This document shows positions 40,807 to 41,826 of a stretch of 62,829 bases of DNA, piece after piece. Positions within the stretch are counted from its first letter, which is position 1; each line of letters starts with the position of its first letter. This stretch comes from Candidatus Nealsonbacteria bacterium (lineage in GTDB: Bacteria; Patescibacteriota; Minisyncoccia; Minisyncoccales; DAOVPY01). The translations under genes were made by a program, and so were the position numbers. Under the pieces are notes generated by a model. It searched no databases, was not told where the DNA came from, and was given only the letters and a program-made list of their open reading frames with translations. The stretch is from positions 1 through 62,829 of the forward strand of contig DAOVPY010000004.1 in assembly GCA_030628945.1 (NCBI GenBank), read 5' to 3'.

Positions 40807-40850
40807 TAGACCGTTGACGCGTTAATTGACCAACTCTCTTGAAAATTTTA

Positions 40851-41004
40851 TAATTGCAAGTGAGGGAGGAAAAGAAAAATTTATTTTTCTTTTCCGACCG
40901 AACGAAGCAATTATTTCCGAAGGTCATAATTGCAAGTGAGGGAGAAATACAAAAATTCATTTTTGTATTTCAACCGAACGAAGCAATTATTTCATAGTCA
41001 TAAT
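40851..41004 (+). repeat. Two tandem copies of a ~75-bp structured element (Pribnow-box-associated)
   Basis: TAATTGC-AAGTGAGGGA-[13-bp stem]-(G/A)ACCGAACGAA-GCAATTA...GTCATAAT; third copy at 55954-56033. Confidence 0.9.
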
Positions 41005-41010
41005 TATAGA

Positions 41011-41826
41011 ATGGAAATTAAAAAAAAGAAAACAATTTCCGCTATTATTCCGGTTTTCAACGAAGAAAAAACAGTGAAAAAGGTTGTTGAAGTTTTTTTG
41101 AATTCTTCTGATTTGATTGATGAAATAATCTGCGTTAATGACGGCTCAACCGATAAAAGCCTGGAAATTTTGGAAAGTTTTAGGAATAAAATAAAATTGA
41201 TAAATCTTAAAAGAAATAAAGGCAAGGGTTGCGCTTTGGCCAAGGGGATTGAAAAAGCAAGCAGCGAATTGGTAGTTTTTTTTGATGCCGACTTTCCTAA
41301 TTTATCAAAAAAACACGTAAGAATTTTAATAGAACCGGTTCTTAAAAAAAAATACAAAACGATTTTGGGGGTACCGGTGAAAAATAAATTGAATCTATCC
41401 TTACCAACCAGAATTTTTCTTACCGGCGAAAGAATATATCCGAGAAAACTGCTTCTTCCTCTTCTTGAAGAAATGAAAAAGACAAAATTCGGGGTAGAAG
41501 TATTTTTGAATAAATTAGCCAATAAAAAAGAAACAAAAATTGTTTATCTAAAAGGGCTTAGTTTTCCTTACAAACACGATAAGCGAGAACCCTCTCAGGC
41601 GTTAAAAGAATCTATTATGGAAGCGGTTGAAATCGCTGAAGAATTCGCCAAAAGAGAAGGAATTCTGCCGAGAGATATAAATATAATAAAAAGTTTGAAC
41701 CAGTCAATAACTATTAAAAAAATAGAAGCAAAAATTAAAAAAATCAAAAACAAACAAATAAGAGAAATTTTAGAAAACTATGTTTTAAAATATCTAAATT
41801 TTTTCAGGTTCAAGAAAAAAATATAA
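41011..41826 (+). CDS. Glycosyltransferase family 2
   Basis: SAIIPVFNEE, VNDGSTD, NKGKG, FFDAD; ATG at 41011 preferred over the ORF-track start. Confidence 0.9.
   Translation: MEIKKKKTISAIIPVFNEEKTVKKVVEVFLNSSDLIDEIICVNDGSTDKSLEILESFRNKIKLINLKRNKGKGCALAKGIEKASSELVVFFDADFPNLSKKHVRILIEPVLKKKYKTILGVPVKNKLNLSLPTRIFLTGERIYPRKLLLPLLEEMKKTKFGVEVFLNKLANKKETKIVYLKGLSFPYKHDKREPSQALKESIMEAVEIAEEFAKREGILPRDINIIKSLNQSITIKKIEAKIKKIKNKQIREILENYVLKYLNFFRFKKKI

Follow-up and report, generated by a model that had tools for sequence, protein, structure and literature searches.

Correia elements are small repeats of Neisseria, 100–155 bp in length with 26-bp terminal inverted repeats, that duplicate a TA dinucleotide and occur in either orientation. 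Overviews of these sequences, also known as CREE or NEMIS, are available (PMC2229807, PMC10969869). In IS200/IS605 insertion sequences and in REP elements, a Y1 enzyme of the HUH class binds hairpins and an internal guide pairs with the cleavage sites (PMC3201880, PMC5027513, PMC5934647, PMC3333891), and for IS608 both the guide/cleavage-site pairing (PMC3201880) and its retargeting (PMC5934647) have been described. We describe here a family of hairpin units, three of which lie in a 62,829-nt stretch of DNA from a Candidatus Nealsonbacteria bacterium (GenBank assembly GCA_030628945.1, contig DAOVPY010000004.1, positions 1 to 62,829 of the forward strand; hereafter the window). The source genome (label G000) comprises 825 kb in 17 contigs, of which the window is contig C13. 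Bacteria of the candidate phyla radiation (CPR) have tiny, streamlined genomes that are generally regarded as containing little mobile DNA. We consider it probable that the units belong to a mobile DNA element of Parcubacteria/Patescibacteria that is small (~70–100 nt), has no genes, is non-autonomous, and moves as a folded single strand, and this element of fewer than 100 nt has colonised about 15% of the genomes in one CPR order, with copies reaching ribosomal-protein operons and the neighbourhood of a 16S rRNA gene.

The units share several properties with the IS200/IS605-derived PATEs and with REP/BIME sequences, in that they are short gene-less hairpin repeats, their stems are conserved in structure with compensatory changes, their polarity is fixed beside a specific sequence of 4–5 nt, and homologues of Y1_Tnp are common in the genomes that carry them. 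An internal segment of the element is complementary to both of its end sequences, which is reminiscent of guide pairing in IS608. Unlike PATEs and REP sequences, however, the left cleavage sequence would form part of the main stem instead of standing apart from a subterminal hairpin, the -10 consensus itself serves as the target, and the RAYT-like genes of the source genome are flanked by other palindromes. The resemblance to Correia elements is of a different kind: both are small intergenic mobile repeats with -10-like boxes at their ends, both may create or alter promoters (a prediction in the case of our element), and both form a long hairpin when transcribed, although the element described here is asymmetric, polar, and ATAAT-targeting. 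A literature search for such an element in CPR bacteria, or for leaderless transcription in Parcubacteria, found nothing, and the hairpin element has apparently not been described so far.

That the units are insertions, and not an ancestral regulator, is seen at orthologous sites in genomes G280 and G252, which represent two species of one genus and whose flanking proteins are 75–89% identical. At three such sites G280 has the element and G252 lacks it. At site 1 the empty sequence in G252 is ...GGAAATGATG TATAAT AAAATAAC ATG, and the filled sequence in G280 is ...GGAATAGGG TATAAT, followed by 79 nt ending in GCAATAAT and then by AAAGCAT ATG. At site 2, G252 has ...ATGTT AAAAT AAAAGCA ATG and G280 has ...ATGTT ATAAT, an insert that again ends in GCAATAAT, and AAAACA ATG. 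Site 3 is the clearest: a 32-nt left flank (...TTTATGC) is followed in G252 by TATAAT TTAGATA ATG, and in G280 the same flank, with one mismatch, is followed by TATAAT, 72 nt ending in ACAATAAT, and AAACA ATG, the insert itself ending in AATAAT. Each empty site therefore has one -10-like box, 7–8 nt before the ATG, and each filled site has the order box-element-box. The covariance model of the element found no match at sites 1 and 2 of G252, and site 3 was checked by eye only. A fourth shared site is filled in both species, with two positions different. Another comparison of G280 with G252 was uninformative, an IS30-like insertion having taken over the region in G280, and six loci in four congeneric species of another genus have no flanking genes in common.

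A further site lies between the genes for ribosomal proteins L29 and S17, where in the source genome a 72-nt antisense copy takes up exactly the space from the L29 stop codon to the S17 ATG. Removal of TGCGAG...TTCGCT gives GAAAAATAATTATGAAAAAC, which reads TAA-TT-ATG. Among 30 relatives this spacer is mostly -17 to +5 nt long, with seven having 10–145 nt, and in the only genome of the same family it reads TAATCATG / CAATAATCATG. The original prediction had called for a search for empty alleles in related strains, and both this junction and the three sites in G252 provide them. It had also proposed that deletion of the units leaves a clean leaderless promoter of the form TATAAT-6 nt-ATG; a single -10-like box does remain before the ATG, at a distance of 7–8 nt at all three sites, and TATAAT-6 nt-ATG is the usual arrangement in the source genome. 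A genome of another family (G400) carries a copy in the same L29–S17 junction (locus L063) that is sense-oriented, opposite to that of the source genome. At L063 the L29 reading frame continues for about nine codons into the element before reaching a stop, and the insertion has apparently altered the L29 C-terminus. As a separate observation, the L29–S17 junctions of genomes from two other families (L110 in G027 and L129 in G019) have a different insert in common, ..CTTGATTTGCTAA(T/G)G(T/A)ATAAATATATAATCTTGAATTAAT ATG, which bears a promoter-like TTGATT...TATAAT.

The three units in the window occupy two loci. Unit 1 (40850–40925, plus strand, 76 nt; 96.8 bits with the covariance model, fold z-score of -6.1, and covariation) and unit 2 (40926–40999, plus strand, 74 nt; 95.5 bits) stand in tandem at locus 1, and unit 3 (55953–56028, plus strand, 76 nt; 89.4 bits) stands alone at locus 2. 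The predicted fold is recovered for every unit, at z-scores between -4 and -7 relative to shuffled sequences, and the pattern GAGGGA-N(20-40)-CCGAACGAA has three matches in the window compared with none in 100 shuffles. The three ATAAT-bounded copies of about 75 nt reported originally are all present, at coordinates one base below those first given. Reading locus 1 from the left, a -35-like hexamer TTGACC (40826–40831, plus strand) is followed after a 17-nt spacer by the left TATAAT (40849–40854, plus strand), so that the promoter recognised by the original prediction reads as it was described; this is the host-side -10 box, and its ATAAT is part of the 5' strand of stem P1 of unit 1. The long hairpin of unit 1 (40850–40914) consists of P1 (ATAATTGC/GCAATTAT), GT:AC, GA/GA, GG:CC, a second GA/GA, and a P2 of 12–13 bp, and a mini-hairpin P3 (TTCCGAAGGTC) comes after it. 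Unit 2 starts with the ATAAT at 40926–40930, which the two units have in common, and it has the inner-stem variant GAAATACAAAAAT, which recurs on another contig of the source genome and in other families. The three compensated pair changes noted earlier between the 13-bp inner stems of units 1 and 2 are real, and because the variant differs from that of unit 1, unit 2 most likely inserted separately. The tandem pair in the window arises in this way, a new unit being stacked on the box of one already there. The pair ends in a terminal, element-borne ATAAT (41000–41004, plus strand) within CATAAT (40999–41004), at the -10 position of a leaderless promoter, and the right end reads CATAAT-TATAGA-ATG with 6 nt between the box and the ATG at 41011. 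At locus 2 the left TATAAT (55952–55957, plus strand, read from the sequence) precedes unit 3, which has a P1 of ATAATTG/CAATTAT, a P3 of GTCTGTAAAGTC, and the same inner stem as unit 1. The terminal ATAAT (56029–56033, plus strand; CATAAT at 56028–56033) is followed by GAAGTT and the ATG at 56040, and the 6-nt distance claimed for the last box is thus found at both loci.

Across the family, the order from 5' to 3' is the host ATAAT, a rod-like hairpin in which mismatches separate the outer stem P1, whose 5' strand takes in that ATAAT, from the inner stem P2, the segment AATTAT, P3, and the element's own ATAAT. P1 is an inverted repeat of 8–9 bp that closes the first hairpin only. Within the rod it is followed by AA/GAA, two base pairs, GA/GA, GG:CC, a second GA/GA, and then P2, which is variable in sequence and 12–13 bp long. 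P3 is short and variable (e.g. GCGGC-GAA-GCCGC, AAGAC-GTTA-GTCTT, CC-GAA-GG) and is followed by ATAAT, and the second hairpin as a whole (AATTAT-P3-ATAATT) folds better than shuffled sequences in 39 of 46 copies. There are consequently three related segments in each copy, ATAATT, AATTAT, and ATAATT, the middle one being able to pair with either neighbour. In two copies from one genome all three segments are altered together, to TATATT, AAATATA, and TATATT.

The 5' ATAAT is present in 81–85 of 86 aligned copies and the reversed ATTAT in none, where the covariance model covers the positions of the 5' ATAAT and so favours them, but a reversed flank would still be detected. An exact ATAAT follows the short second hairpin in about 60 of 92 copies, and the proposal that other copies would be ATAAT-flanked therefore extends well beyond the window. 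The base before the left box follows its host context, being T, or C when it is part of a start codon, or A. The base before the right box tracks instead the P3 subtype (gcA-, cttcT-, ggtC-), and the right box accordingly belongs to the element. One box in the empty state becomes two in the filled state, and tandem units share one box. The pattern fits polar insertion beside ATAAT by an element with its own terminal ATAAT. The target is the ATAAT sequence, taken with fixed polarity, and not promoters as such. The view that the element targets -10 boxes is thus supported with one refinement: it is mobile, associated with such boxes, and rebuilds one on insertion, although about 24 of the 92 copies lie antisense on ATTATG, where what is targeted is ATAAT itself.

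Two other modes of insertion deserve consideration here. A classical cut-and-paste MITE (miniature inverted-repeat transposable element), with the arms of P1 as its inverted repeats, ATAAT as a 5-bp target-site duplication, and a DDE transposase acting in trans, would also give one ATAAT-like box when empty and two when filled, and the 8–9-bp inverted repeat of P1 and the lack of an open reading frame (ORF) are features that such an element would have. However, the element is asymmetric, with P3 and the right box lying 3' of the P1 inverted repeat yet inside the insert, and its polarity to ATAAT is fixed in some 90 copies, whereas a duplicated target would permit both orientations. The empty AAAAT of site 2 is unlike both filled boxes, the right box goes with the P3 subtype, and no parent element with such ends was seen in the source genome in a scan for half-sites that was noisy. 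We regard a MITE as unlikely. A site-specific recombinase of the tyrosine or serine type, integrating a circular form with ATAAT as the crossover core, would explain the presence of the core on both sides, the fixed polarity, and the tandem units with one common core. It would have to act at many different target loci per genome, and not at a single attachment site, through a core of 5 nt that is very short, and none of the copies examined has a recombinase gene linked to it, the flanks having been inspected only casually. Integration of this type appears a little more improbable still.

The fold of the element is supported by covariation. Of the alignment cells from 84 distinct copies, 95.7% are paired; double changes are seen at 20 of 24 pairs, and none of 500 shuffles equals these values, although the alignment was fitted to P1 and P2 and pairing counts there lean towards the structure. 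Slid-alignment controls fall to 37–56% paired. The middle helix, which lies outside the model, covaries as well, with G:C in 59, A:U in 12, and G:U in 7 copies at one pair, and U:A in 40, C:G in 23, and U:G in 12 at the other. GAGGGA and its counterpart had been described as invariant loops, which they are not: GT:AC, GC:GC, and AT:AT covary, GG pairs with CC, and the two sets of pairs are set apart by two symmetric GA/GA mismatches to give one long irregular rod. A kink-turn or hammerhead reading of the GA motifs was also rejected, since the first GA/GA lies two Watson-Crick pairs away from the asymmetric loop and the rod is unbranched.

Strong covariation and conserved internal nucleotides are also what a cis-regulatory RNA would display, and the original prediction offered a tandem riboswitch-like RNA as its alternative. 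In such a reading the units are riboswitch-like or protein-binding leaders, in tandem at the glycosyltransferase gene of locus 1, and selected at each locus; copies do adjoin start codons, and the pairing of AATTAT with either the upstream or the downstream ATAATT resembles an expression platform. Orientation, gene context, and presence or absence all contradict it. The copies lie in both orientations to the adjoining gene (33 antisense, 21 sense co-directional, 29 divergent), the adjoining genes are functionally unrelated, and presence varies between congeners. With the left box as promoter, moreover, the 5' strand of P1 would be untranscribed. In copies that are antisense to the adjoining gene the wobble bias is still on the element's own strand (27 versus 16), and the mRNA strand is therefore not the one selected. 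A search of Rfam 15 gave nothing at the gathering score, and the best matches under relaxed conditions (E up to 10) reached at most 21 bits against cut-offs of at least 41 bits, in agreement with the earlier statement that no named family was recognised. We judge a cis-regulatory RNA to be highly improbable, and note that a covarying hairpin of this sort could easily be misannotated as a riboswitch by annotation pipelines.

The distribution of the family is wide but patchy. The covariance model, built from copies in the source genome, identifies eight copies there on five contigs (seven strong and one weaker) and finds the element in 16 of 61 relatives. In the same order it is present in 61 of 401 genomes (~15%), belonging to 48 of 246 genera, and the highest counts are at least 12 copies per genome; 12 candidates were scored per genome, and counts of 11–12 are lower bounds. 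The originally proposed search of the genome and of Patescibacteria thus yields further copies in both. The carriers are fragmented metagenome-assembled genomes. The units are 70–112 nt long and have no coding capacity, and they stand in tandem pairs or triplets in other genomes too. Of 401 genomes sampled across the phylum, 12 besides the source genome matched, more weakly but with the same layout, and all of these lie outside the order. A scan of 185,579 species genomes for the exact pattern, with matches checked against the model, places true copies nearly exclusively in genomes that bear the label Patescibacteria or Parcubacteria (Staskawicz-, Nealson-, Azam-, and Niyogibacteria, together with metagenome-assembled genomes under generic labels), with the exception of three loci from metagenome-assembled genomes labelled Gammaproteobacteria. 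Pattern matches in Amycolatopsis, Myxococcales, Nitrospirota, Lactimicrobium, and Angelobacter do not pass the covariance model and are chance occurrences. Carriage by phages was also considered and rejected, since two pattern matches in viral contigs both fail the model and no true copy was found in viral contigs. The median identity between copies is 79% within a genome and 74% between genomes, and variants that are nearly identical (up to 93%) can be found in different families. Divergence within genomes is thus similar to that between them, and several lineages of the element are therefore either old or exchanged horizontally.

The architecture of the units suggests how movement might occur. 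The element would move as a folded single strand and insert 3' of ATAAT, with the internal AATTAT presenting both cleavage sites through base pairing, as in IS200/IS605 and REP elements. The enzyme would be supplied in trans, and Y1/HUH transposase homologues are the candidates. Homologues of Y1_Tnp (PF01797) are present in 44 of 61 carriers and 160 of 340 non-carriers, an odds ratio of about 2.9 in which kinship is ignored. The source genome has three Y1/HUH (RAYT-like) homologues of about 160–246 residues, at C12:13980–14465, C5:29321–30058, and C12:33255–33995, and the two that were tested match REP_Tyr_transpos below its cut-off. The half-site scan for a parent element with a transposase in the source genome, noisy as it was, gave only a truncated remnant at C5:~31845–31883 (minus strand; TATAATTGCGAGTGAGGGAGAAAAAGA / TAATAATTATATG), from which the 3' half and the greater part of the inner stem are missing.

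Several observations weigh against movement of this kind. The strand asymmetry of the wobble pairs is weak (66 G·T versus 42 A·C), and a 5-bp target duplication would leave the same pattern as insertion 3' of ATAAT by an element bearing its own ATAAT. At site 2 the empty box is TAAAAT and both filled boxes are ATAAT, and at site 3 the 5–7 nt between the box and the ATG are not alike. Within- and between-genome diversity is alike, with no signature of a recent burst. Seventeen of the 61 carriers are without a Y1_Tnp homologue, shared ancestry inflates the association, and all three Y1 genes of the source genome are bracketed by other inverted palindromes (e.g. GGCAGAGACCTGTTCTCTGCC, GTTTAAGGTAGAACCTTAAAC) and not by the element. 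These notwithstanding, movement as a folded single strand is the interpretation we favour, and it admits a more specific form, in which AATTAT acts as a guide that pairs with ATAATT in transiently melted DNA, so that the element homes preferentially to -10 boxes, which open more easily than any other DNA in the cell, and possibly to open promoter complexes; a box would be rebuilt at each end, the element would spread among the promoters of a leaderless genome poor in Shine-Dalgarno sites without killing genes, and leaderless transcripts would become leadered ones. We put this forward tentatively and think it rather unlikely, although if it were true the copies with co-changed TATATT, AAATATA, and TATATT segments would be instances of natural retargeting.

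The consequences for the host depend on how genes start in these bacteria. In the source genome TATAAT-like hexamers have a sharp maximum 12 nt upstream of the ATG (51 of 601 genes, against a background of about seven) and a peak at 14 nt as well, Shine-Dalgarno-like words are barely enriched, and there is a TTG signal 17 nt upstream of the leaderless boxes. For these reasons we take the boxes to be real leaderless promoter elements, and leaderless transcription seems, from these signals, to be the usual gene start in the source genome, which bears on gene calling and start-site annotation in these lineages. In sigma-70-type promoters of leaderless genes the -10 box stands 6–7 nt upstream of the start, and the boxes at 40999–41004 and 56028–56033 are at the dominant spacing of the source genome. 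They differ from such promoters in that the element-borne right box has no -35 TTG, and its role as a promoter is putative.

Among the 92 copies, and in the orientation of the element, 33 lie between two leftward genes (left minus, right minus; antisense co-directional), 29 between divergent genes (left minus, right plus), 21 between two rightward genes (left plus, right plus; sense co-directional), and three between convergent genes (left plus, right minus). Two arrangements predominate. In the sense arrangement, P3, ATAAT, about 6–8 nt, and an ATG follow in order on the right. In the antisense arrangement (~24 of 92) the copy starts with CATAAT, the CAT being the start codon (ATTATG) of the leftward gene, often inside operons. 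The -10 boxes of leaderless genes (TATAAT-6 to 8 nt-ATG) account for most targets, and others are ATAAT strings at stop/start junctions. The adjoining genes are unrelated, and include those for a family-2 glycosyltransferase (GT2), gltX, a HAD phosphatase, S17, L11, an acetyl-CoA synthetase-like protein, and 16S rRNA; at L150 in genome G362, 9 nt separate the end of the copy from the start of the 16S rRNA gene (..TAAATATAT TTATTTTG AGAGTTTGATCC..). By comparison, with genes called crudely, the source genome has 792 intergenic ATAAT sites, of which leaderless -10 boxes make up about 6% and CATAAT start codons about 9%, and the element copies, with roughly 25% in each class, are moderately enriched in both. 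This enrichment could be explained by selection against other positions, or by a target preference narrower than ATAAT.

After insertion the host -35 would remain with the left box, and the right box would stand at the leaderless distance from the ATG, so that insertion probably alters expression and does not abolish it. For selfish DNA, landing on a -10 hexamer and recreating it is an uncommon route to being tolerated, and one that may give rise to variation among promoters. It is possible, if doubtful, that the mobile element has in addition been recruited as a regulatory module, some copies being selected because they convert a leaderless gene to one with a structured 5' leader or with a weakened, -35-less promoter. 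The copy shared by two species at the same site with only two changes is consistent with this, as are the 6–8-nt spacing that the right box holds to the ATG, the avoidance of convergent junctions (3 of 92), and the -35 TTG found at 9 of 57 left boxes (in copies that are not antisense) compared with 1 of 52 right boxes. However, the occurrence of ATAAT itself (~6% sense at a box and ~9% antisense at a start) together with purifying selection alone can account for the enrichment at gene starts.

Both loci in the window lie in intergenic regions between divergent genes, as was originally noted. Locus 1 is between a GT2 gene on the minus strand (40099–40806; Pfam PF00535, E = 3e-25) and another on the plus strand (41011–41826; PF00535, E = 2e-26), and locus 2 is between the glutamyl-tRNA synthetase gene gltX (54369–55913, minus strand; PF00749, E = 5e-103) and an ORF of 425 aa on the plus strand (56040–57317) without a Pfam match. 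A search for strain polymorphism by means of the 425-aa protein found that the only contigs encoding it are identical upstream of its gene, and no record of the locus 1 GT2 protein elsewhere was found in the search for strain variants.

Some variants and neighbouring sequences are also of note. Composite units of 100–112 nt have a second GAG...hairpin...GAAC module nested in the loop of the inner stem, as in the source genome at C3:203737–203848 (minus strand) and in L013, L047:911–1022, L074:210–316, and L078:1585–1686. L087 and L088, both from genome G218, have a GC-rich hairpin (CCCCCACACCTAATTTAGGTGTGGGGG) within P3, flanked by repeated CTTTGCC, that has the appearance of another tiny element lying inside the first. 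Another insert that is present in G280 and not in G252 lies at L153 on contig C10, about 60–190 nt upstream of a PMT-like gene, and consists of a GC-rich hairpin (GGGCGCGGCGAGTCCGCCAAAGGCGGGCGAG...) between inverted copies of AAACAAATTTTTAAATCA / TGATTTAAAAATTTTGTTT. Finally, a 23S rRNA match on the minus strand of the window (60628–62613) spans 1986 nt and covers only model positions 2045–2912 (868 positions), with a second 23S rRNA piece at 62657–62814 (minus strand), the whole region being 60628–62814. This suggests an intron-like insertion of about 1.1 kb in the 23S gene.

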